Assembly: GCA_964600985.1 (NCBI GenBank)
Contig: CAZRJR010000002.1
Coordinates: 40,867-104,866 of the forward strand
Source of the DNA: an uncultured Candidatus Saccharibacteria bacterium
GTDB taxonomy: Bacteria > Patescibacteriota > Saccharimonadia > CAILAD01 > JADZBC01
Direction: 5' to 3'
Length of the DNA stretch: 64,000 bases
The position numbers were made by a program, and so were the translations under genes. Shown here in pieces: positions 8,938-52,090 of this stretch. The notes under the pieces are model-generated. The model was not told where the DNA came from. It saw nothing but the letters and a program-made list of their open reading frames with translations, and made no database searches. The stretch's first letter is position 1, and every line of letters starts with the position of its first letter.

Positions 8938-9029
<92 letters not shown>

Positions 9030-18043: not shown

Positions 18044-18120
18044 TGGTGTATCCGGAGGGATTCGAACCCCCGACCCCCAGCACCGCAAGCTGATGCTCTA
18101 TCCAACTGAGCTACGGATAC
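18044..18120 (-). tRNA. tRNA-Arg (anticodon reads GCG)
   Basis: GTATCCG acceptor stem, D-arm GCTCAGTTGGATAGAGC, anticodon stem TCAGC/GCTGG with loop TTGCGGT, T-arm GGGGGTTCGAATCCCTC, encoded CCA. The backbone aligns closely to bacterial tRNA-Arg(ACG), but position 34 is G. Confidence 0.7.
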
Positions 18121-19852: not shown

Positions 19853-19942
<90 letters not shown>

Positions 19943-20466: not shown

Positions 20467-20560
20467 TGGCGGAGAGGGAGGGATTCGAACCCTCGCTAGA
20501 GATTGCTCCCTACTAACGGTTTAGCAAACCGTCCCCTTATAGCCACTTGGGTACCTCTCC
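20467..20560 (-). tRNA. tRNA-Ser (anticodon GCT)
   Basis: Anticodon stem ACGGT/ACCGT with loop TTGCTAA. Long variable arm. Encoded CCA. Confidence 0.85.
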
Positions 20561-38591: not shown

Positions 38592-38681
38592 GGAGAGGTC
38601 GCATAGTGGTCTAGTGCGCCGCCTTGGAAAGGCGGTGTAGGGGCAACTCTACCGAGAGTTCGAATCTCTCCCTCTCCGCCA
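38592..38681 (+). tRNA. tRNA-Ser (anticodon GGA)
   Basis: Anticodon stem CCGCC/GGCGG with loop TTGGAAA. Long variable arm. T-arm GAGTTCGAATCTCTC. Encoded CCA. Confidence 0.85.
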
Positions 38682-42420: not shown

Positions 42421-42975
42421 CTAACTTAACTTCTTCTGTAATTCCGTGAGGTCTTTTAGACTGCGTGCCAATTCTTTGCTCAATTCGTCGTGTTTGAATT
42501 TGCCCGAGTCGTCGATGTGTTCATGGGCAGCAGGAATCACAATATTGTGTGCAAGTTGCATGAGTTTAACCTGGGAGAGCACTGGCTTAAGCTGCTCTAC
42601 GCCGCGAATTCCGGCATGTGGCGTCATAGAGTATCCGGCCAGTAGTACTGGCTTGCCGTGCCACTGCGCACCAAGCCAGTCAATGGCATTTTTGACCGCT
42701 GCCGAGTAGCCGTGGTTGTATTCGGGGGTTAGAATCACGTAAGCATCGCCCTCGGAGATTTTTTGCGCCCACCTTCGTCCCGTGTCGTTCTTATAATTAC
42801 CATTCGCCATGAGTGGCGGCATGGCTTCGTTGTATAAGGGGAGGGGCCAGTCATGCAGGTCGAGTAGTTCTGGCTCAATGCCATCTATTTTGCTGGCTTC
42901 ACGCTCTATCCATTGCCCAACTTTGCTGCCCAAGCTACCTTCGCGGACTGAACCAGTTATGATTTGTAACTTCAT
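42421..42975 (-). CDS. NAD(P)H-dependent FMN reductase family protein
   Basis: 184 aa flavodoxin-like fold (MKLQIITGSVREGSLGSKV...). Confidence 0.75.
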   Translation of the reverse strand: MKLQIITGSVREGSLGSKVGQWIEREASKIDGIEPELLDLHDWPLPLYNEAMPPLMANGNYKNDTGRRWAQKISEGDAYVILTPEYNHGYSAAVKNAIDWLGAQWHGKPVLLAGYSMTPHAGIRGVEQLKPVLSQVKLMQLAHNIVIPAAHEHIDDSGKFKHDELSKELARSLKDLTELQKKLS

Positions 42976-43093: not shown

Positions 43094-43438
43094 ATGAAGA
43101 CATTAACTAGAAGCAACAAGGCCTCAGTCCCTTCTGCTAAAGATTATGCCAACTGCGGCTTGGCTAAAACCCTAAAGATCATTGGCAGTAAGTGGACGCT
43201 CATGATTCTGTATAGCTTGTTCGAGGGGACTAAGCGCTTTGGCGAGTTGCAGGACTCGCTTGGCCTCAGTCCGCGTACCTTGGCCTTGCGGCTACAGCAG
43301 CTCGAGCAAGATGGAATTATAACTAAGAAGGCGTATGCCGAGGTGCCGCCGCGCGTAGAGTACTCGCTCACCGAAAAAGGTCGCTCACTCCATAAGGTAA
43401 TCAAAGATCTCAGCGCCTGGGGCGATACGCGCTGCTAG
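43094..43438 (+). CDS. HxlR-family winged-helix transcriptional regulator
   Basis: CGLAKTLKIIGSKWTLMILYSLFEGTKRFGELQ...VEYSLTEKG. Divergent from the FMN reductase gene, a common regulator/target pairing. Confidence 0.8.
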   Translation: MKTLTRSNKASVPSAKDYANCGLAKTLKIIGSKWTLMILYSLFEGTKRFGELQDSLGLSPRTLALRLQQLEQDGIITKKAYAEVPPRVEYSLTEKGRSLHKVIKDLSAWGDTRC

Positions 43439-43547: not shown

Positions 43548-43835
43548 TCACTGGCCACTGCCGGGGCACTTTGGCCCACGGCGTGGTGGCGCGTGCTCGG
43601 CGCGCGGCGGCAGCTCTTTCCAGTGGTCTGGGATCTTGGGCGCGAAGGGCTCCGTGCTGAGCGGGCCTTCGTGCACCAAGATGAAGTGAGCTTCGCAGCC
43701 TGGGTGCGGGCAGTCACGCTCCAGTACTGCAACCGGCCTGAACCAACACGCCGTAGACGGACTGTGGCCTTTTGGCAACACACAGCGTCTGCCACTAGAG
43801 CCGAGGGGAAAACCACATTGCTCATTCTCTGTCAC
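43548..43835 (-). CDS. Hypothetical Cys/His-rich small protein in a GC-rich insert
   Basis: 95 aa. About 62% GC over a 400-bp segment. Coding is uncertain. Confidence 0.25.
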   Translation of the reverse strand: MTENEQCGFPLGSSGRRCVLPKGHSPSTACWFRPVAVLERDCPHPGCEAHFILVHEGPLSTEPFAPKIPDHWKELPPRAEHAPPRRGPKCPGSGQ

Positions 43836-44058: not shown

Positions 44059-44460
44059 TTAGGTATTTTTGGGCATACCCTCGAAGTCGAGAGCACAGGA
44101 GTTAATGCAAAAGCGCTGGCCGGTTGTGTTGCGTGGTCCGTCGTTAAAGACGTGCCCCAAGTGGGCTCCGCAATTGCTGCAGACTACCTCGGTGCGGTGC
44201 ATACCATGTGAATCGTCGGCAATTTGTTTGGTGGTGCCGGGTAGTGCCTGGTCAAAGCTAGGCCAACCAGAATGTGAGTTGAACTTGGCACTGGAAGCAA
44301 AAAGTTGCTGCCCACACACCACGCAGTTATACATGCCGTGCTCGTGGTGATGAACATACTTGCCACTGAATGGTGCTTCGGTAGCCTTGTGCTGGGTAAC
44401 TTGGTAAGCTTCGGAACTAAGTTTGTGCTTTAGGTCACTTGAGTCGGTTATGTCGCTCAT
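44059..44460 (-). CDS. msrB: Peptide-methionine (R)-S-oxide reductase MsrB
   Basis: CxxC...CxxC zinc site and catalytic CGAHLGHVFNDGP. Confidence 0.9.
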   Translation of the reverse strand: MSDITDSSDLKHKLSSEAYQVTQHKATEAPFSGKYVHHHEHGMYNCVVCGQQLFASSAKFNSHSGWPSFDQALPGTTKQIADDSHGMHRTEVVCSNCGAHLGHVFNDGPRNTTGQRFCINSCALDFEGMPKNT

Positions 44461-44517: not shown

Positions 44518-45642
44518 ATGGCAGCGGATACGAAGGCACAAATTAAGGTGCTGATTCGTCCCACGGGGGTTGGTATAAACGGCAAGAACCCTTGGGATAT
44601 TGCAGTACACAACGAGAAGTTCTACGATCGGGCGCTGGCTGGTGGTTCGCTCGGCCTGGGTGAGGCATATATGGATGGCTGGTGGACGAGTAAGGACCTA
44701 GAAGAAACGATTTATAGGCTGATATCGGCAGGAATAGATAGAAAGGTGCGCCCCAATTTAGTGTTGGCGCGCCACTATGTGGCAGCCTCGCTACGCAATC
44801 ACCAGTCGGTACGGCGGGCCAAGCGCAACGCCCAGGCGCACTACGACATTGGCAATGACCTCTACGAACCCATGCTCGGAGCAAGTATGGCTTATAGTTG
44901 CGGTTACTGGAAGAACGCCAAGACGTTGGACGAAGCACAAGAAGCCAAATACGAGCTCATTTGCCAGAAGTTGAAGCTCAAACGCGGCATGCGAGTACTC
45001 GACATTGGCTGTGGATGGGGTGGCCTGGCAATGTATATGGCACGCAAATACAAAGTCGAGGTTACCGGTGTAACCCCGGCGCGCGAACAGGCCAGCTACG
45101 TACGCGAGCATGCCAAAGGACTCGCGGTAAAGGTGTTGGAGCAAGATTATCGCGAGGTGAAGGTACGGCAAAAGTTTGATCGCGTAGTGTCGGTCGGCAT
45201 GGCCGAGCACATTGGCCCCAAGAACCTACCAAGCTACTTCGCCAAGGTCGACGAAGTTATGAAGAACGACGGCATATTCCTCCTTCACACCATTGGGAAT
45301 AACCGCACTACTCGTACCAATGAACCTTGGATGAATAAGTACATTTTCCCGGGTGCCGTGCTGCCATCGATGGCAAGTGTAGCTCGTGCTTGCGAAGGCG
45401 GCTTTGTAATTGAGGACATGCATAACTTCGGTCCGGATTATGAAAAAACGTTGCTGGCTTGGTACAGGAACTTCAAGAAAGCTTGGCCAAGCTTGGAGGA
45501 GAAGTACGGCGAGCGGTTTTATAGAATGTGGGAATTCTACCTACTGTCGTGCGCTGCGGCTTTCAAGGCTCGCCATATACAGCTGTGGCAGTTTGTAATT
45601 ACTAAGCCTGGTGGCCAGGCTCGTTACGACTCAGTCCGCTAG
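44518..45642 (+). CDS. cfa: Cyclopropane-fatty-acyl-phospholipid synthase family methyltransferase
   Basis: SAM motif VLDIGCGWGGLAMYMA and the CFA-synthase fold pattern. Confidence 0.85.
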   Translation: MAADTKAQIKVLIRPTGVGINGKNPWDIAVHNEKFYDRALAGGSLGLGEAYMDGWWTSKDLEETIYRLISAGIDRKVRPNLVLARHYVAASLRNHQSVRRAKRNAQAHYDIGNDLYEPMLGASMAYSCGYWKNAKTLDEAQEAKYELICQKLKLKRGMRVLDIGCGWGGLAMYMARKYKVEVTGVTPAREQASYVREHAKGLAVKVLEQDYREVKVRQKFDRVVSVGMAEHIGPKNLPSYFAKVDEVMKNDGIFLLHTIGNNRTTRTNEPWMNKYIFPGAVLPSMASVARACEGGFVIEDMHNFGPDYEKTLLAWYRNFKKAWPSLEEKYGERFYRMWEFYLLSCAAAFKARHIQLWQFVITKPGGQARYDSVR

Positions 45643-45698
45643 GCTTTACCCAACTCGCTTATGTTATAATCAGCTTGAATAACTAAGCGAGGAATTCT

Positions 45699-46469
45699 AT
45701 GGCCACCAAGAAGATTACTAAGGCAGGTTTGCGTACGTTTAATCTGAAAATGGCAGGTCTGCACGCTGTGCAGGCGGTGGCAATCTTGCTCCTCGCCAAG
45801 GACTTTACTCTGCCGGTTACTACAAGTTTCCTAACCTTTAGCAGAGTCAGCAAAAGCCTCGAACCAGCTACAAAAACATTGTTTAATGTACCGTTGGCTT
45901 GGTTAATAGTGGCATTCTTGGCACTTTCTGCAACTGCCCACTTAGTTATCGCAACCGTCTATAATAAGCGCTACAACCAAGGCTTGAGTAAGGGTATTAA
46001 CCAGGCTCGATGGATCGAATACTCACTTTCTGCCAGTACTATGATGGTGGCAATTGCACTCTTAGTCGGCATTTATGACCTCTCGCTCCTGATTGGTATA
46101 TTCGCTCTCGTAGCGTTCATGAACCTTATGGGGCTGGTTATGGAGGTACACAACCAAACTACCGAAAAGACCAATTGGTTGAGTTATATAATTGGCTGCA
46201 TTGCCGGCATAGTGCCTTGGGTGATCGTGGGGTTATCGTTTTGGGGTAGCGCCACGTATGGTAGTGGTAACATTCCTGCATTCGTGTATTGGATTTATGT
46301 GTCCATTTTCATCTTCTTTAACTGCTTCGCGATCAATATGCTCTTGCAGTATTTAAAAGTAGGGAAGTGGAAGGACTATATGTACGGAGAACGTATGTAT
46401 ATCGTCTTGAGCCTGGTGGCTAAGTCCGCTCTGGCTTGGCAAGTGTTCTTTGGTACCCTAAGGCCATAA
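45699..46469 (+). CDS. Heliorhodopsin
   Basis: 7-TM protein with blocks diagnostic of heliorhodopsins (RWIEYSLSAS, IGCIAGIVPW, GERMYIVLSLVAKSALAWQ including the retinal Schiff-base Lys in helix 7). Inverted topology relative to type-1 rhodopsins is a family property. Confidence 0.8.
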   Translation: MATKKITKAGLRTFNLKMAGLHAVQAVAILLLAKDFTLPVTTSFLTFSRVSKSLEPATKTLFNVPLAWLIVAFLALSATAHLVIATVYNKRYNQGLSKGINQARWIEYSLSASTMMVAIALLVGIYDLSLLIGIFALVAFMNLMGLVMEVHNQTTEKTNWLSYIIGCIAGIVPWVIVGLSFWGSATYGSGNIPAFVYWIYVSIFIFFNCFAINMLLQYLKVGKWKDYMYGERMYIVLSLVAKSALAWQVFFGTLRP

Positions 46470-46472
46470 ACT

Positions 46473-46724
46473 ATGACGTATAAGGGCCACAAGCACCACG
46501 AACATGTCTACCGGTCAGCTGCAAAGGCTGTCAGTTATCGAGTAGTAATATCTATCCAGCTGTTTGTCATTACATGGCTAGTGACCGGCAGTGTACAGAG
46601 CGCACTGCAACTAACTGGCTGGACGGCTGTGGTGAGTACACTTGTGTATTATCTTCACGAACGAGTTTGGGCCCATATTGCGTGGGGCAGAACCAAGCCA
46701 AGCTATAGTAAGGGCAACAAATAG
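46473..46724 (+). CDS. DUF2061 family membrane protein
   Basis: 83 aa. KAVSYRVVISIQLFVITWLVTG...YYLHERVW follows the DUF2061 pattern. Only 4 bp downstream of the heliorhodopsin gene. Confidence 0.6.
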   Translation: MTYKGHKHHEHVYRSAAKAVSYRVVISIQLFVITWLVTGSVQSALQLTGWTAVVSTLVYYLHERVWAHIAWGRTKPSYSKGNK

Positions 46725-46730
46725 TATGAG

Positions 46731-47093
46731 TTAACCGAGGGGTTCGTCGTTGGAATTCTTGGGCTTCTTGCTGGCCGACTTGGGCGTAATTGCTACGGCC
46801 AGAACACCTATGCCTATGAGCAAGAACAGTGCGCCGCCAAGTGCAGAGTTGTTGGCATAGAGGCCTAAGTTTCGAGCTAAAAGTAAAGCGCCTACTCCAA
46901 TCATGCCAAAAGGAATGGCCGAGCGCCCTTTGCCAGCCGACAGCGCACCGGCAAATATCAGTAGAGCGGGCCACCAAGGGCCAACATCGAAGTTAAGTTT
47001 GAGCATATGCAGTGCGCTAATTAAAATTGCGAAACCAAAAGCGATGATCACGAGGCCGAAGATGATACTAGAGTTACGATTGTCATCCATACC
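46731..47093 (-). CDS. Hypothetical membrane protein (LiaF-N-terminal-like multi-TM)
   Basis: Start trimmed to MDDNRNSSIIFGLVIIAFG. Four hydrophobic helices. Confidence 0.45.
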   Translation of the reverse strand, partial: GMDDNRNSSIIFGLVIIAFGFAILISALHMLKLNFDVGPWWPALLIFAGALSAGKGRSAIPFGMIGVGALLLARNLGLYANNSALGGALFLLIGIGVLAVAITPKSASKKPKNSNDEPLG

Positions 47094-47217
47094 TTTATTA
47101 TCTACCTGGCGCGCACAATTGCAAGCGGATGGCATGGCGTGATAGTGCAATCTGCTTGACAGTTACGCCTTCGCGCCTACAATTGAGGGTAAGGTAATAA
47201 TAAGGTAAGGAGTAATT

Positions 47218-47763
47218 ATGAATAGTTCAGACACATTAAAAGCTAATTGGTGGATGCTCACCGTACGTGGTGTGGCACTTTTGTTATTCGGCTTAGTAGC
47301 CGTGTTTTGGCCAGGCCTTACGCTTGTAACGTTCGTATACTTATTTAGCGCATTCTTGCTTGTAAGCGGTTTAGTAGGGGTAATTACAGCACTTGTTTCA
47401 ATTGGTAACAAAGGCTGGTTTGTGGGCTTGCTCATGGGGCTTTTGGAGTTAGGCGTGGGCTTGTACTTGGTTCGCCACCCATTGGTTTCGTTTGCCACAC
47501 TAATTCTACTGCTCGGCCTTAGCTTTATTGTTCGCGGCGTAATCGAAGTGGTATCGGCTCTATCTGGTAATGACATGGCAACCAGTAAGACCCTTGCCAT
47601 TATTGGTGGCCTCTTGGGTGTCATCGTAGGGGTCATGGTGCTTAACCAGCCAGCTGCCAGTGGTGTAGTGTTTGTATGGTTGGTTGGCTTGTACGCACTA
47701 CTCATGGGACCGGTGGTAATCGCACTCTCGCTCGACGCTAAAAAACTTGCTTCTGCCAAGTAA
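47218..47763 (+). CDS. HdeD-family (DUF308) membrane protein
   Basis: Repeated TM pairs with WW/G-rich turns (ANWWMLTVRGVALLLFGLVAVFWPG...). Confidence 0.65.
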   Translation: MNSSDTLKANWWMLTVRGVALLLFGLVAVFWPGLTLVTFVYLFSAFLLVSGLVGVITALVSIGNKGWFVGLLMGLLELGVGLYLVRHPLVSFATLILLLGLSFIVRGVIEVVSALSGNDMATSKTLAIIGGLLGVIVGVMVLNQPAASGVVFVWLVGLYALLMGPVVIALSLDAKKLASAK

Positions 47764-47780
47764 GTAGCTTAAGGCTAAGA

Positions 47781-48908
47781 TTGGCTAAGCAGACGAACAC
47801 ATCGGCGGCGGGCTTAAAAGCGAGCGTAGCAACTCCGTGGCCCGCGGAGGATCAAGCGCTTAAAGCGCTCATGGTGGTTGCGCCCGGTGTGTTTGTCGTT
47901 ACATTGCTCATAAGTCGGTTCGTGCTAGGGGTAGACACACTGCCAATTATCGGCCGACCATCGATGTCGATCTTCATCTCGCTTATAAGTAGCTTGCTTG
48001 CCCTTGGGCTGTTCGTGGCGCTGTATTCACGCGCAGTTAGTAAGACTGATCCGTATAGTTACTTGGCTACCGCTCGGTTGCCTATGCGCTGGTTTGACGC
48101 ATTGAGTTTGGGCATCGTATACGCGTTAATTGTATTCATACTAACGGCACTGGCTGGACGGGTAATGGCAGCTTCGTTCGAAGGCTTGCAGTTCGATATA
48201 TATACCGCCTCAATCCTCATGGGTGTTACATGTGGGCTCGTGGCATATGGTGTGGTTCGTACGGTGACTAACATTGACAGTAGGCAAATCGTGAGTGTGC
48301 TCGCGCTGTTCTTGGTCGGTGGTGTAACCCTGAGTATGCTTACGGCTCAGAACCCATTGTGGTGGGAGGCTAACTTTAGCACCCTTGGCCAGGCTACTCA
48401 GCGCGGCACGGCCTCGTTTTATGCATTTAACTTAACACTTATCTTTTCGGCGTTAGCGATTATTGTGCTGGCGCGCCATTTGTATGCCGACATGCAAGCG
48501 CTCATGAAAGAGGGATCACTTATAGGGGTGAGTAGAACGAACGCTGTTAAGACTATCTTCGTAGTGGCAGCCTTGGGCCTTGGTGGGGTGGGGCTGTTCT
48601 TTTATAAGCCGGATTCTCTTCAAGGCACGCTGCACGTCTTTTCGGCTGGCTTGGTAGCGCTGGCCTTTGGCGCTCTTATGATTCTGCTCAAGTGGCTACT
48701 ACCTGGGCTGTCGCATACGTTTATGACTATATCTTATATAGCATTAGCAGCCTTGGTGGGTGCCTACATTCTGTATATGGTACTCGGGTATTTGAGTCTA
48801 ACGGCTTTCGAGCTTAGCTGCTTTGGTATATGCTTCGGCTGGCTGTACCTCTTTACTCAACAGATCGCCCAGGAGAGAAGTGGTATAATGAAGGTGAAGG
48901 AGAACTAA
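47781..48908 (+). CDS. Hypothetical polytopic membrane protein
   Basis: 375 aa, at least 8 predicted TM helices. Confidence 0.5.
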   Translation: MAKQTNTSAAGLKASVATPWPAEDQALKALMVVAPGVFVVTLLISRFVLGVDTLPIIGRPSMSIFISLISSLLALGLFVALYSRAVSKTDPYSYLATARLPMRWFDALSLGIVYALIVFILTALAGRVMAASFEGLQFDIYTASILMGVTCGLVAYGVVRTVTNIDSRQIVSVLALFLVGGVTLSMLTAQNPLWWEANFSTLGQATQRGTASFYAFNLTLIFSALAIIVLARHLYADMQALMKEGSLIGVSRTNAVKTIFVVAALGLGGVGLFFYKPDSLQGTLHVFSAGLVALAFGALMILLKWLLPGLSHTFMTISYIALAALVGAYILYMVLGYLSLTAFELSCFGICFGWLYLFTQQIAQERSGIMKVKEN

Positions 48909-48911
48909 GCC

Positions 48912-50078
48912 ATGGGGAAGCTAAGAACCATTACAGGCTGGGTGCTGGTGGTATTAGGGTGTTCTATGCTCTCGACCTTTGCCATTGTGCGCTGGACCGA
49001 GCAGCAAGTACTAGATACCAATAACTGGGTGGCAACTATGTCGGCGCTGCCTAAGAACCAGGCTGTGGCATGGTCAATTGGTACTAAATTGGTTGATGGT
49101 ATATTTGAGAAAGGAGACATTACCACAAACCTCGAAGAAGTATTGCCGCCCAAACTCGAGTTCTTAGCACCTACCATTTCTGGATTCTTGCGCACCAAAG
49201 CGAACGATCTAGCGACTCAAATAATCATGAGTAACAAGTTTGATCAGATTTGGTCGGACGCGAATCGCACTGCACACCAGAACTTAGTAAAAGTACTGCG
49301 TTCACCTGCGAAGTCGCAAGATGCCAAGTTGTTACCATATAAAATTAACTTAGCTAAAGCCCAAACTTGGTTGCAAAACGCCGCTGCCAAGACTGATAAC
49401 GCCAAGCTTTTACAGGCACAAGATACTGCCAAGGACGTAGTGGCATTCAACGCTAGCTTGCGTAGGGGCATCAACCAGCTGCGTGCCTTTGTGCGAACTG
49501 CCGACAGTTTATACATGCTATTGCCTTACGCGGTTCTGGCAGCGTTTTTGGCAGCCCTGGCTGTAGCTCACAAACGACTCAAGGTACTAATGGGCATAGG
49601 AATCGGCATAAGTGCGCTCAATGTTTTGGCAATCGCCGGCGTGAACGTGCTGCGCCCGGCACTTCTTAATTCTTTGCAGGACCAGTCGTATTCGCCCATA
49701 TTCAACGTGCTTTGGACGGAGCTTTCACAGCCGTTCCTGTCTTACGCACGCTACTTGGTAGTGGTGGGCTTTGTGGTCATACTCTTTGCACTTGCGCTGG
49801 GTCACAAATGGTTCTCGTACTTAGTGTCAGTCAAGGCCAAGCAGGCCGATTGGTACAAGTCTGTTGGGCAAATAGTTCGCAAAGCACGGACTATGCTCAT
49901 AGAATCTTCGAGCTACCTCTATGGCGGGGGAGTAGCAATAGCAGCACTGGTAATTGCCTTTGGTGGCTTCGAAAACTGGCAAGCGATTGCTCGCATCGTG
50001 CTCTTACTGGTCTCGTATTTGTGCGTGATCAGGCTTATTACATTACCCTTTGCTAGCTCAGCAAAAGCCTCTAAGTGA
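48912..50078 (+). CDS. Hypothetical membrane protein
   Basis: 388 aa. N-terminal TM, a large soluble domain, and C-terminal TM helices. Confidence 0.5.
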   Translation: MGKLRTITGWVLVVLGCSMLSTFAIVRWTEQQVLDTNNWVATMSALPKNQAVAWSIGTKLVDGIFEKGDITTNLEEVLPPKLEFLAPTISGFLRTKANDLATQIIMSNKFDQIWSDANRTAHQNLVKVLRSPAKSQDAKLLPYKINLAKAQTWLQNAAAKTDNAKLLQAQDTAKDVVAFNASLRRGINQLRAFVRTADSLYMLLPYAVLAAFLAALAVAHKRLKVLMGIGIGISALNVLAIAGVNVLRPALLNSLQDQSYSPIFNVLWTELSQPFLSYARYLVVVGFVVILFALALGHKWFSYLVSVKAKQADWYKSVGQIVRKARTMLIESSSYLYGGGVAIAALVIAFGGFENWQAIARIVLLLVSYLCVIRLITLPFASSAKASK

Positions 50079-50162
50079 GCTTAGCTTCAGCCAACATTCA
50101 GCTTGACAGTACGGTTCACCTAGGCGGACAATAGCAGTGTAATTAATCAAGGAGTTACACTC

Positions 50163-50561
50163 ATGGCAAGTAAAAATAACGTGACTGGCTGGGTCGGCTG
50201 GGTCTTCTTTGCAGGATTCATGATGACCATGCTTGGTACTTTCCAGATGATCGCCGGGCTTACGGTGCTTCTAAATAGCAAGTGGCTTGTAACCACAGAA
50301 TCAAGTCTGCTCTTGCTTAACTTTAGCACCTGGGGTTGGACCTATCTTCTGCTTGGCCTGGTAGTACTCTTGGCTGGCTTTGGGGTCATGAAGGGCTCAG
50401 TATGGGCCCGCGTAGCTGGTGTGCTGATTGCGCTTCTTAGTGCCGCTGCCAACTTAGCTTCGATCAATATTTACCCAATTTGGTCGATCATTATCATTGC
50501 GGTCAATGTATTGGTAATCTTTGCCCTTACTGTGCATGGCGACGAACTCAAAGAAGTATAG
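50163..50561 (+). CDS. Hypothetical small membrane protein (4 TM)
   Basis: 132 aa, RBS AAGGAG. Confidence 0.5.
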   Translation: MASKNNVTGWVGWVFFAGFMMTMLGTFQMIAGLTVLLNSKWLVTTESSLLLLNFSTWGWTYLLLGLVVLLAGFGVMKGSVWARVAGVLIALLSAAANLASINIYPIWSIIIIAVNVLVIFALTVHGDELKEV

Positions 50562-50682: not shown

Positions 50683-50925
50683 ATGAATGCCTACCAAATA
50701 CTCGTTATCATCTTAGCAATTACCCTGGCGGTGTTTCTAATACTAGGAATTATTGCCGCATCTTTACTGATTGGCTTATTGCGCAATATGAAGCAAATTC
50801 CACCTAAGATTGAAGGGATAGTGGACAACTTCCAGGATGTAAGTGAAGCCATGCGCGACACTGCGGCACCGCTAATTATGATTGGCGACCTTATGAAGAA
50901 GTTCTTTCCGTCTAAAAAGCGCTAA
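50683..50925 (+). CDS. Hypothetical small membrane protein
   Basis: 80 aa with a single N-terminal TM. Confidence 0.4.
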   Translation: MNAYQILVIILAITLAVFLILGIIAASLLIGLLRNMKQIPPKIEGIVDNFQDVSEAMRDTAAPLIMIGDLMKKFFPSKKR

Positions 50926-50964: not shown

Positions 50965-51393
50965 TTGACTATGGTACAAATCAAGGCTAATAGTCCGGCC
51001 GACTATATAGCTCAACTACCTAAAGACCGCCAGGGCGATATAGAGCAGCTTGTAGCGTTGATTCAAAAAGAAGCTCCCGAACTCAAGCCAACTATGCAGT
51101 TTGGCATGATTGGCTTTGGCCCGTATCGTTATCGTTACGCAAGTGGTCGCGAAGGTGATTGGGCGCAAATAGCTGTAGCTGCCCAAAAGAACTATACATC
51201 TTTATATGTTTCGTGTGCGGATAGAGGCAAGTATTTGGCTGAGTCTTATAAGGATAAGTTGCCAAAGGCTAATATTGGCAAAAGCTGCATTCGATTTAAA
51301 AGACTCGCTGACTTGGATACTGCAGCCGTGCGGCAACTTATTGCTCAGGCGGCAGAGCTCTATAGCCCTAGTGTCGATAATTATGCAGGCTAA
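50965..51393 (+). CDS. DUF1801 (YdhG-like) domain protein
   Basis: 142 aa. Pattern DYIAQLPKDRQGDIEQLVALIQKEAPELKPTMQFGMIGFGPYRY. Confidence 0.6.
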   Translation: MTMVQIKANSPADYIAQLPKDRQGDIEQLVALIQKEAPELKPTMQFGMIGFGPYRYRYASGREGDWAQIAVAAQKNYTSLYVSCADRGKYLAESYKDKLPKANIGKSCIRFKRLADLDTAAVRQLIAQAAELYSPSVDNYAG

Positions 51394-52090
51394 AGACGTC
51401 AAGGCTCAGCTCGCTAGCTTTGCCAGCCCTGAGCGTGCCAAGAGTTCAGCGTGGTTTTTTAAAACTGGCGCTGGACAATATGGCGAAGGTGATGAATTTA
51501 TAGGCGTGAACGTACCCGATCAGCGCCGGGTTGCCAAGCAGTTTGTAAATTTACCACTTAATGAGGCGGCAAAACTACTAGCTAGCAGCGTCCACGAGCA
51601 CCGCCTAACAGCTCTCATCATACTGGTTGCACAGTACAAGGTTGCAGCGGACGATGGTAAACAGCGCATATATGACTTTTACTTAGCCCACGCAGGCTGC
51701 GTGAATAATTGGGATTTGGTAGACAGCTCGGCGTCGTACATAGTAGGTGCGCATTTGTTCGATAAAGACCGTTCGTTGCTCTATGATTTAGCATACTCTG
51801 CGAGCTTGTGGGAGCGGCGCATAGCAATCATTGCCACCGCATACTTTATTGCTCGCGGGGAGAGTAATGACACGTTCGCGATCGCTGAAATTTTACTTAC
51901 CGATACGCATGACCTTATTCACAAAGCAGTGGGTTGGATGCTGCGTGAGGTGGGTAAAAGCTGTGGTCAGGAGGTTGAAGAGGAGTTTTTACACCAGTAT
52001 TATAAAAAAATGCCACGCACTATGCTACGCTACAGTATAGAGCGCTTCAGCCCAGAGCGCCGACAGCAATACCTAAAGGGCTTAATTTGA
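51386..52090 (+). CDS. DNA alkylation repair protein (AlkD/AlkC-like HEAT-repeat glycosylase family)
   Basis: 234 aa from MQAKDVKAQLASFASPERAKSSAWFFKTG, with the ...WDLVDSSA...WERRIAIIAT pattern. Confidence 0.65.
   Translation, partial: QAKDVKAQLASFASPERAKSSAWFFKTGAGQYGEGDEFIGVNVPDQRRVAKQFVNLPLNEAAKLLASSVHEHRLTALIILVAQYKVAADDGKQRIYDFYLAHAGCVNNWDLVDSSASYIVGAHLFDKDRSLLYDLAYSASLWERRIAIIATAYFIARGESNDTFAIAEILLTDTHDLIHKAVGWMLREVGKSCGQEVEEEFLHQYYKKMPRTMLRYSIERFSPERRQQYLKGLI

Follow-up and report, generated by a model that had tools for sequence, protein, structure and literature searches.

The window, i.e., the whole stretch of 64,000 nucleotides analysed here, carries a genuine heliorhodopsin (HeR) gene, the sequence of which has all the diagnostic residues, followed directly by a DUF2061 gene. 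The HeR-DUF2061 pair is limited to one small clade of Saccharimonadia, as seen among the best 80 of at least 578 HeR loci. The probable explanation is a canonical HeR with its own promoter and an interchangeable second gene, where the adjacency of DUF2061 results from one local relocation and does not represent a conserved sensor-transducer pair. The HeR found here adds a member to the family, and no new light-signalling pair with DUF2061.

The heliorhodopsin and its probable transcription unit

The features of the locus are as follows.

42421..42975, minus strand: NAD(P)H-dependent FMN reductase-like flavoprotein (weak NCBIfam FMN reductase matches)
43094..43438, plus strand: HxlR-family transcriptional regulator, divergent from the FMN reductase gene, clade-wide (PF01638, 105.3 bits)
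43548..43835, minus strand: unannotated Cys/His-rich ORF of 95 aa at a local GC peak, conserved in loci L001 and L174
44059..44460, minus strand: msrB (SelR, methionine-R-sulfoxide reductase), divergent from cfa-HeR (PF01641, 166.8 bits)
44518..45642, plus strand: cfa (cyclopropane-fatty-acyl-phospholipid synthase-like), upstream of HeR (PF02353 CMAS, 294.8 bits)
45662..45670, plus strand: putative HeR promoter, extended -10 TGTTATAAT, read from the sequence in the 56-bp cfa-HeR gap
45689..45693, plus strand: Shine-Dalgarno GAGGA, read from the sequence, 5 nt 5' of the HeR ATG
45699..46469, plus strand: heliorhodopsin gene, 256 aa (PF18761, NCBIfam HeR, TaHeR and 48C12 alignments)
46473..46724, plus strand: DUF2061 gene, 83 aa, predicted two-helix membrane hairpin (PF09834)
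46731..47150, minus strand: LiaF-TM domain membrane protein (PF22570, 33.9 bits)
47218..47763, plus strand: DUF308 protein (Pfam match)
47781..48908 and 48912..50078, plus strand: two unclassified proteins of the membrane-protein run
50163..50561, plus strand: DUF7144 protein (Pfam match)
50683..50925, plus strand: sm80, 80-aa gene
50965..51393, plus strand: DUF1801 protein (PF08818, 53.7 bits)
51383..52090, plus strand: DNA alkylation repair enzyme (PF08713, 201 bits; start inferred from ortholog length)

Both genes were found on the plus strand where the earlier, sequence-only reading of this DNA had placed them, and the three peptide blocks by which it had recognised the first as a heliorhodopsin (RWIEYSLSAS, IGCIAGIVPW and GERMYIVLSLVAKSALAWQ) are all contained in the protein. 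In profile searches the protein matched PF18761 over positions 1-242 of 242 with 331.5 bits (cut-off 26.7) and the NCBIfam equivalog NF038020 with 339.2 bits (cut-off 100), and it was aligned over its full length with TaHeR (281 bits) and with 48C12 (185 bits), which bears out the identification. The alignment against these two references (TaHeR, 6is6; 48C12, 6su3/9ljj), which had been suggested as a check of the Schiff-base and counterion positions, located both residues. The counterion is E107 in RWIEYS of helix 3, equivalent to E107 in 48C12 and E108 in TaHeR, and the Schiff-base lysine is K242 in the SxxxK motif of helix 7 (S238-L-V-A-K242), aligned with K238 of TaHeR (chain position 244) and the corresponding lysine of 48C12; both columns are invariant across 18 sequences. 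H22 and H81 match H23 and H80 of 48C12, the former being nearly invariant and the latter invariant in alignment A1. Since the protein aligns over its full length and with few gaps to HeRs of solved structure, and its N-terminus (MATKKITKAGLR) is basic, it would be expected to have seven helices in an inverted topology with a cytoplasmic N-terminus, to bind retinal and to run through a slow photocycle without pumping.

TaHeR (Thermoplasmatales archaeon SG8-52-1; PDB 6IS6, 7U55, 7CLJ) is 54% identical to the window HeR and shares with it the counterion Glu, the SxxxK Schiff-base Lys and the His pair, with helix 7 and the C-terminus nearly identical. However, the host of the window HeR is bacterial (Saccharimonadia), its extracellular loop before helix 6 is five residues longer and its gene context is unrelated. 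In 48C12 (PDB 6SU3, 6UH3, 9LJJ) the position of E107 is exactly the same and H23, H80 and K241 are the counterparts of H22, H81 and K242, but the window HeR is only 43% identical to this protein, which belongs to a different HeR sub-group. The nearest loci by similarity were those of Saccharibacteria/Saccharimonadia MAGs, and the clade referred to below comprises nine Saccharimonadia lineages with HeR at least 77% identical.

Only 3 nt (ACT) lie between the TAA of HeR and the ATG of DUF2061. Upstream of HeR, the sequence TGnTAyAAT was invariant in 8/8 clade loci regardless of which gene lay further upstream, while the surrounding DNA had a mean identity of 56%, and a purine-rich GGAG/GAGG was present in every clade locus. 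This suggests that the extended -10 element is the HeR promoter. The consensus promoter scanner did not list it, apparently for want of a qualifying -35 hexamer; the promoter and terminator counts of this scanner were not above those of shuffled sequence, and it gave no convincing terminator after DUF2061. The putative unit would be ended by the convergent LiaF-TM gene after a gap of 6 nt. Given the 3-nt gap and the conserved putative promoter 5' of HeR, the two genes probably share a transcription unit, in line with the co-translation that had been proposed from the close spacing. The spacing is nothing special in the window, since in 15 of the 50 same-strand gene pairs in the 64 kb (30%) the genes are no more than 10 nt apart. 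Stop read-through giving a HeR-DUF2061 fusion was also considered, as both ORFs share one reading frame in the window, L088 and L005; L001 and L002, in which the frames differ, led to its rejection.

Distribution of the HeR-DUF2061 pair

The HeR survey covered the best 80 of at least 578 HeR loci, with Actinobacteria, Firmicutes and most Chloroflexi outside the sample. When every ORF of 40 aa or more from 83 HeR loci was searched with the DUF2061 HMM, only clade members matched (E <=1e-31) and the next best hit had an E value of 0.16. DUF2061 was found within +/-6 kb of HeR in none of the 78 species-level loci outside the clade (among the best 80 of at least 578). Reciprocally, HeR was present in 1/85 DUF2061 loci, the clade member L088, and near DUF2061 in 0/84 loci outside the clade; the distant DUF2061 loci obtained in a metagenome scan were reused for this survey. 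The sequence-only reading had put forward DUF2061 as a possible partner or transducer of HeR and had named sporadic adjacency in a neighbourhood survey as the outcome speaking against it. Sporadic adjacency is what both directions of the survey gave, and even within the clade the two genes are separated in four of the nine lineages.

Synteny of the neighbourhood as a whole was limited to the clade. The gene context of a 70%-identical HeR was unrelated to that of the window, and the commonest neighbour family, a generic ABC ATPase, occurred in no more than 20 of the 78 non-clade loci. A small membrane protein tightly 3' of HeR was considered as a general theme and rejected as a minority pattern, being found in only about 12-15 of 82 loci and belonging to at least seven unrelated families. 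DUF2177 directly follows HeR in L013.

Within the clade, two architectures were observed and a single relocation event suffices to explain them. In architecture A (5/9 lineages, the sub-clade of the window) HeR is followed by DUF2061. In architecture B (4/9 lineages) it is followed by DUF5684, and DUF2061 is located 0.8-4.6 kb downstream beside the DNA-alkylation repair or the DUF1801 gene. This second position corresponds to the sm80/DUF1801 junction in the window; the order is sm80-DUF2061-DUF1801 in L176 and sm80-DUF2061-DNA alkylation repair in L003, L004 and L174, and DUF2061 overlaps the following type of gene by 1 nt in L176 (DUF1801) and by 4 nt in L003 (DNA alkylation repair). DUF2061 sequences grouped by architecture, with identities of 71-92% within A, 75-88% within B and 62-74% between A and B. 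The LiaF-TM gene comes after the position next to HeR in eight of the nine lineages, the exception being L176, in which that part of the block is deleted.

A small membrane protein follows HeR in every lineage of the clade, and this, together with the small membrane DUF partners already published, makes a lineage-specific membrane partner for HeR plausible by analogy. Moreover, the adjacency in sub-clade A persists down to 77% HeR and about 71% DUF2061 identity, and its retention at such divergence is more than trivial. DUF2061 lies within about 5 kb of HeR in all nine lineages. A word-indexed search for further close relatives of the clade DUF2061 returned none besides clade members. DUF2061 may therefore be functionally tied to the gene block, or to HeR within sub-clade A. 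The metagenome scan with the clade DUF2061 alignment gave no new clade members, only distant relatives of at most 50% identity.

The DUF2061 family in other contexts

The DUF2061 ORF matched PF09834 with 54.4 bits (cut-off 23.1) over profile positions 2-52 of 52. Its sequence shows two hydrophobic segments and the conserved motifs HEHxYRS and YYxHERxWAHxxWGRT, the invariant residues being taken from clade alignment A2. The family had 1,754 representatives at E <= 0.001. Elsewhere, DUF2061 proteins occur as C-terminal fusions to CysN-type GTPases and as tandem duplicates, and the gene is also found next to APS kinase. In Caulobacter, Shewanella and Vibrio, DUF2061 genes were reported as induced by iron limitation or as members of Fur regulons (PMC3751524, PMC12442407, PMC12341060). 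The proteins concerned (Caulobacter CC_0155, Shewanella SO_4740 and Vibrio VP_RS12985) have the same 52-residue two-helix PF09834 domain as the window protein; unlike the latter, they are products of iron-limitation/Fur-regulon genes in diderm hosts without HeR. Seen across the family, the two-helix membrane hairpin of DUF2061 is portable and serves unrelated contexts.

Surrounding genes and oxidative stress

The upstream neighbours msrB, cfa, FMN reductase and HxlR, all named by the sequence-only reading, were recovered, the FMN reductase by weak NCBIfam matches in the window; its orthologs bear PF03358 FMN_red or PF02525, with PF03358 in that of L001. For the downstream protein described as HdeD-like, the DUF308 domain was found, but the full HdeD model, with a cut-off of 189 bits, gave a score of only 31. 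The synteny of the membrane-gene run (47218..50561) is confined to the clade. Even there the upstream genes vary: cfa adjoins HeR in six loci and is missing from L003, L174 and L176, and msrB occurs only in the window, L001, L005 and L174.

HeRs have been linked with oxidative-stress genes (Bulzu et al. 2021, PMC8612252; for CPR bacteria, Chiriac et al. 2022, PMC9166423), and the oxidative-repair theme near HeR is thus already published. The window resembles the loci of those studies in having redox/repair genes near HeR in a monoderm-like CPR bacterium. However, the genes named in those papers are glyoxalase, glutaredoxin, catalase, peroxiredoxin and thioredoxin, with no mention of Msr, and the linkage seen here is not conserved outside the clade. 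In this locus, the oxidative-stress and membrane-homeostasis neighbourhood proposed earlier is the synteny of one clade, with msrB and cfa variable. Redox/repair genes close to the window HeR are msrB, the FMN reductase with HxlR, the DNA alkylation repair gene and a NUDIX gene.

Possible explanations of the locus

In the explanation that we favour, HeR would, by homology, carry all-trans-retinal on Lys242, with Glu107 serving as the counterion, and would be a slow-cycling photoreceptor without pump activity that modulates other proteins through direct contact. Its retinal would presumably be scavenged, since rhodopsin-bearing Saccharibacteria have been reported without blh and with retinal scavenging (PMC9296517). 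The conserved extended -10 promoter would drive HeR as a short two-gene unit terminated by the convergent LiaF-TM gene, and the second gene would be exchangeable, DUF2061 in the sub-clade of the window and DUF5684 in the sister sub-clade. One local relocation, inside a block of membrane, redox and repair genes found only in this clade, would have made HeR and DUF2061 neighbours. The locus may also be linked to photo-oxidative stress.

Alternatively, DUF2061 could be a dedicated partner or transducer that is translated together with HeR and passes the light signal on in the membrane. The 3-nt gap within one promoter-defined unit, the adjacency held in five lineages of sub-clade A and the strongly conserved His/Glu motifs, which fit a functional protein, are in its favour, and small membrane DUFs are known in HeR operons (PMC11109279). 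We nevertheless consider this very improbable, as the pair was found in neither the 78 other HeR loci (among the best 80 of at least 578) nor the 84 other DUF2061 loci, and in the four sister lineages DUF2061 is tightly coupled to other genes with DUF5684 in its place. Furthermore, the family occurs mostly in diderm bacteria without HeR, tied to iron regulons or sulfate-activation enzymes, and tight gene spacing is common in the genome of the window. The opposite possibility is that the neighbourhood has no meaning for HeR, which would be a stand-alone photoreceptor or weak transporter in a variable island, with linkage reflecting ancestry and genome compaction. The low frequency of even the top neighbour family, the complete change of context at 70% HeR identity and the fact that, across lineages, the position after HeR is taken by small membrane proteins from seven or more unrelated families agree with this. 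On the other hand, the second cistron in the clade is always a small membrane protein under a conserved putative promoter, verified HeR partners in other organisms share the operon of HeR (PMC9529153, PMC9769723, PMC11109279), and Msr genes are modestly in excess near HeR; a neighbourhood without meaning is conceivable but, on balance, somewhat unlikely.

This excess leads to a further explanation, namely that HeR, on sensing light, raises the expression or the activity of MsrA/MsrB, and possibly of further redox genes, against photo-oxidative damage, the window locus being one instance. In 10 loci of the survey (best 80 of at least 578), MsrA (PF01625) preceded HeR in the same orientation at a distance of 12-1570 nt, directly adjoining it in L040 and L060, and MsrB was near HeR in seven (the window, L001, L005, L174, L047, L058 and L071); in the Thermoplasmatales archaeon L071, msrA, msrB and HeR lie side by side. 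A thioredoxin-reductase-like family was near HeR in four loci, and the general oxidative-stress link of HeR cited above points the same way. A manual count gave about five independent events where chance would give 0.7-2.3. However, nine of the 10 MsrA loci share one synteny block and amount to roughly one event, and the Poisson P ranges from 0.005 to 0.2 depending on the assumptions. Counting independent contexts by single-linkage of shared neighbour families had been uninformative, as 70 loci were chained into one component, and was replaced by the manual count. About 65 of the 83 HeR loci have no Msr gene nearby, and in the clade of the window msrB is limited to four lineages and, lying on the opposite strand, is outside the putative HeR operon. 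The recurrence of Msr near HeR is only suggestive, and regulation of Msr by HeR appears unlikely. A reading in which HeR opens a promoter-defined two-gene cassette with interchangeable HeR-binding membrane partners, and a parallel one in which the recurrent Msr-HeR linkage marks light-regulated repair, are in our opinion quite unlikely. In the first, DUF2061 and DUF5684 would be lineage-specific HeR-binding partners in the second position, and the cytoplasmic His/Glu motifs of DUF2061 would connect the sensing of light with a response involving metals or redox; in the second, CPR bacteria and Thermoplasmatales archaea would possess a light-regulated methionine-sulfoxide repair system.

Comparison with known HeR operons and implications

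Cho et al. (2024, PMC11109279) described ten groups of HeR operon partners: GS, NAD+ synthetase, photolyase, MerR, TerC, ABC transporter, SDR, alpha/beta-hydrolase, DUF2177 and DUF2238. The window locus is similar to these in that HeR has a neighbouring gene in what may be a short operon, and some of the published partners are small membrane proteins. Unlike them, DUF2061 and DUF5684 fall outside the ten groups, and the HeR-DUF2061 pairing is limited to one sub-clade. Since every verified case of HeR function came to light through an operon partner, candidate partners are worth screening; the negative outcome for DUF2061 as a general HeR partner in the loci surveyed spares experimental effort. 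It also illustrates that, in compact CPR genomes, synteny at the level of a clade is easily mistaken for functional linkage. Three modest leads result: the conserved putative promoter of HeR, together with a second cistron that can be one or another small membrane protein; the possible excess of MsrA/MsrB beside HeR in Patescibacteria and Thermoplasmatales, where none of the papers searched coupled heliorhodopsin with methionine sulfoxide reductase; and the clues to the DUF2061 domain offered by the CysN fusions and the Fur/iron regulons.

Two minor points concern the annotation. The mechanically called ORF of the DNA alkylation repair enzyme starts at 51206, whereas its PF08713 domain begins at residue 65 and its orthologs are 235-242 aa long. 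An Rfam scan of the whole window at gathering thresholds, aimed at the HxlR-msrB gap, gave five tRNAs, all elsewhere. The gap houses the conserved 95-aa ORF, which has a GC content of 0.64-0.67 around it compared with about 0.50 for the genome and is 60% identical to the ORF at the same position in L001 (E 5e-39), with a further counterpart in L174.

Identity of the heliorhodopsin and its neighbourhood

The following genes were found around the heliorhodopsin (HeR) gene in the window (positions and strand):

42421-42975, minus: FMN reductase-like
43094-43438, plus: HxlR
44059-44460, minus: msrB
44518-45642, plus: cfa
45699-46469, plus: HeR, 256 aa
46473-46724, plus: DUF2061, 83 aa
46731-47150, minus: LiaF-TM
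47218-47763, plus: DUF308
47781-48908 and 48912-50078, plus: two unclassified membrane proteins
50163-50561, plus: DUF7144

A sequence-only reading had proposed the HeR and DUF2061 genes as a pair. Its coordinates for both ORFs matched exactly, and its neighbour genes were borne out by Pfam and NCBIfam annotation. The HeR protein scored far over the curated cut-offs (331.5 bits in Pfam, 339.2 in NCBIfam) and the 83-aa protein matched DUF2061 (Pfam, 54.4 bits; cut-off 23.1). End-to-end alignments were obtained with the structurally solved TaHeR (6is6; 281 bits, 54% identity) and 48C12 (185 bits, 43% identity), and the suggested check against characterised HeRs recovered both the helix-3 counterion, Glu107 (RWIE107YS), and the helix-7 Schiff-base Lys242 in S238-x-x-x-K242. 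A missing lysine, named beforehand as grounds for refutation, was therefore not observed. His22 and His81 correspond to H23 and H80 of 48C12, and across 18 aligned sequences all four columns showed little or no variation. The protein is a genuine, canonical HeR, typical of a family whose presence in Saccharimonadia had been documented before; among the best 80 of at least 578 loci, the nearest ones come from MAGs labelled Candidatus Saccharibacteria or Saccharimonadia, which places the window in a CPR/Patescibacteria genome. Chiriac et al. reported 80 HeR occurrences in Saccharimonadia, and HeRs were already known to be common in CPR/Patescibacteria (PMC9166423). Rhodopsin-bearing Saccharibacteria were reported without blh, the retinal probably being scavenged (PMC9296517).

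Recurrence of the HeR-DUF2061 adjacency

From the HeR side, the survey covered the best 80 of at least 578 loci in a genome collection, one per species and 53-84% identical to the window HeR, with three further loci added by exact-protein look-ups. Most were Saccharibacteria, with some Dojka-, Woyke-, WWE3- and Berkelbacteria, Thermoplasmata, Dehalococcoidales and Dormiibacterota. An HMM built from 50 short DUF2061 members was run on all ORFs of 40 aa or longer, and it matched only in the window and comparison loci L001/L002, L005, L003 and L004 (E ~1e-31 or better), the next-best score being E = 0.16. Within 6 kb on either side of HeR, DUF2061 was found in none of the 78 loci (from the best 80 of at least 578) with HeR identity of 70% or less. 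Unbiased clustering of all neighbours gave a generic ABC ATPase as the commonest family (20 of 78 non-clade loci), and the relative with 70% HeR identity had a wholly different context, NUDIX-166 aa-HeR-MFS.

From the DUF2061 side, an exhaustive HMMER search (E <=0.001) returned 1,754 representatives at 50% clustering, many carrying a tandem pair of domain copies. Of 85 DUF2061 loci (80 metagenomic, five from look-ups) scanned with a HeR HMM, a single one contained HeR: L088, itself a member of the window's clade. DUF2061 as a recurrent HeR partner thus failed the recurrence test on both sides, and no paper in the literature searched mentioned heliorhodopsin and DUF2061 together. Genes for APS kinase, sulfotransferase and glycosyltransferase surround the nearest non-clade DUF2061 relatives (49% identity), and in several soil metagenome contigs DUF2061 is fused C-terminally to CysN-type GTPases (GTP_EFTU + eEF1A_C). 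Loci with such fusions or a sulfate-activation context include L156:5177-7186, L132:591-2156, L145:2609-3718 and L084:4964-6213. Because of these fusions and this proximity, there are hints that DUF2061 serves as a membrane anchor for sulfate-activation enzymes. The sole experimental mentions of DUF2061 found were published tables of iron-limitation or Fur-regulon genes in Caulobacter (PMC3751524), Shewanella (PMC12442407) and Vibrio (PMC12341060), all diderms without HeR.

A clade-specific gene block

Additional clade members were recovered by look-ups of HeR and DUF2061 homologs, and tblastn then added genes absent from public annotation. Nine lineages, their HeR 77-100% identical to that of the window, have in common the order PmbA-TldD-FMNred-HxlR-[CysHis95]-[msrB]-[cfa]-HeR-[slot 1]-LiaF-TM(-)-DUF308-mem375-mem388-DUF7144-sm80-[slot 2]-[DUF1801]-DNA_alkylation-NUDIX, where sm80 is a small 80-aa gene. 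Two architectures were distinguished:

Architecture A: slot 1 = DUF2061, directly after HeR; window, L088, L001/L002, L005/L171-173, L177
Architecture B: slot 1 = DUF5684, slot 2 = DUF2061, after sm80; L004, L003, L174, L176

The adjacency is therefore restricted to one sub-clade, while in the sister sub-clade another small membrane protein stands behind HeR and DUF2061 lies 0.8-4.6 kb away, overlapping DNA_alkylation by 4 nt in L003 and DUF1801 by 1 nt in L176. Identities between DUF2061 proteins group according to architecture (A-A 71-92%, B-B 75-88%, A-B 62-74%), as would be expected from one relocation in the ancestor shared by one sub-clade; its direction is not polarisable since the outgroups have no DUF2061. 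Every gene of the proposed neighbourhood co-occurs with HeR essentially only within the clade, msrB in four lineages (window, L001, L005, L174) and cfa in six loci. The best-supported reading is a clade-specific membrane/redox/repair gene block in a compact genome, of which one small gene has moved. A lineage-specific functional HeR-DUF2061 pairing is improbable.

The whole LiaF-TM-DUF308-mem375-mem388-DUF7144 segment is gone from L176:5525-9478 (HeR-DUF5684-sm80-DUF2061-DUF1801), so the membrane-protein run 3' of HeR is dispensable. Public calls had overlooked the small genes DUF2061 at L003:11408-11644 and L177:7773-7997 and DUF5684 at L174:7805-8224; annotation-only surveys would have misjudged the clade architecture.

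Predicted transcription unit and spacing

The 56-bp cfa-HeR gap holds TGTTATAAT at 45662-45670, together with the Shine-Dalgarno motif GAGGA. When the 90 nt 5' of HeR from eight clade loci (window, L001, L003, L004, L005, L174, L176, L177) were aligned, the extended -10 element TGnTAyAAT was invariant in all eight, with the rest at ~56% mean identity. It lies ~25-30 nt 5' of the HeR start whether cfa, msrB or another gene stands upstream, and we infer from this conservation a putative dedicated HeR promoter. The predicted unit would comprise HeR and the slot-1 gene and be ended by the convergent LiaF-TM (6-nt gap in the window).

The DUF2061 ATG follows the HeR TAA after three nucleotides. This tight spacing, previously taken as a sign of co-translation, is compatible with an operon but is not distinctive, as gaps of at most 10 nt occur in 15 of the window's 50 same-strand gene pairs, four of them exactly 3 nt. 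In the window, L088 and L005 the two ORFs share a frame, with the stop codon alone between them in L005 and one further codon in the window and L088. The 1-nt overlap in different frames seen in L001/L002 makes programmed read-through unlikely.

Oxidative-repair genes and other HeR neighbours

The association of HeR with redox-defence genes has been published (PMC8612252) and extended to CPR bacteria (PMC9166423); the locus fits this theme without extending it, contrary to the earlier claim. In the literature searched, no paper linked methionine sulfoxide reductase to heliorhodopsin, and the Msr-HeR linkage appears not to have been reported previously. In ten non-clade loci (L030, L040, L041, L048, L060, L067, L069, L076, L079 and L071) MsrA (PF01625) is encoded 12-1570 nt 5' of HeR on the same strand, directly adjacent in L040 and L060. 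MsrB occurs near HeR outside the clade in L047 (Dojkabacteria), L058 and L071, a Thermoplasmatales archaeon in which msrA(+), msrB(-) and HeR(+) are immediate neighbours (L071:768-2531). Since nine of these ten MsrA loci belong to a single Saccharibacteria synteny block, c100-MsrA-[sortase]-HeR-RumA-RsmE-PD-(D/E)XK-SerRS-HPF, they amount to about one event. Outside the window's clade this leaves about four independent events where 0.7-2.3 would be expected in the 799 kb surveyed, a suggestive excess whose Poisson P (0.005-0.2) varies with assumed genome size and independence. A thioredoxin-reductase-like flavoprotein (~311 aa), called by eye from its N-terminal FAD motif, lies near HeR in four loci, including L032:1549-2484.

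A small same-strand membrane protein stands directly behind HeR in ~12-15 of 82 loci. It comes from a range of unrelated families, with DUF2061, several unclassified proteins and the following represented:

DUF2177, L013:6764-7174
PAP2, L028:6772-7242
DUF7672, L035:6856-7107
DUF378, L054:6861-7073
DUF5652, L075:6797-6997
DUF5684, L003:6797-7234
unclassified 4-5-helix proteins, L007, L020/L014, L029, L047

Published HeR partner groups are GS, NAD+ synthetase, photolyase, MerR, TerC, ABC transporter, SDR, alpha/beta-hydrolase, DUF2177 and DUF2238 (PMC11109279); DUF2177, which follows HeR in L013, is one of these operon groups.

Rfam gathering-threshold matches in the 64-kb window were five tRNA genes only (8941-9029, 18047-18120, 19856-19942, 20470-20560, 38592-38678). 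A Cys/His-rich ORF of 95 aa (43548-43835, minus; CGFP...C...H...CPxPGC...H...CPGSG), with no Pfam family on record, lies where GC rises locally to 0.64-0.67 (genome ~0.50). Orthologs with ~59-60% identity occupy the corresponding site in L001 and L174, and L005, with an HxlR-msrB gap of 13 bp, has none; the ORF may encode a zinc-binding protein gained recently.
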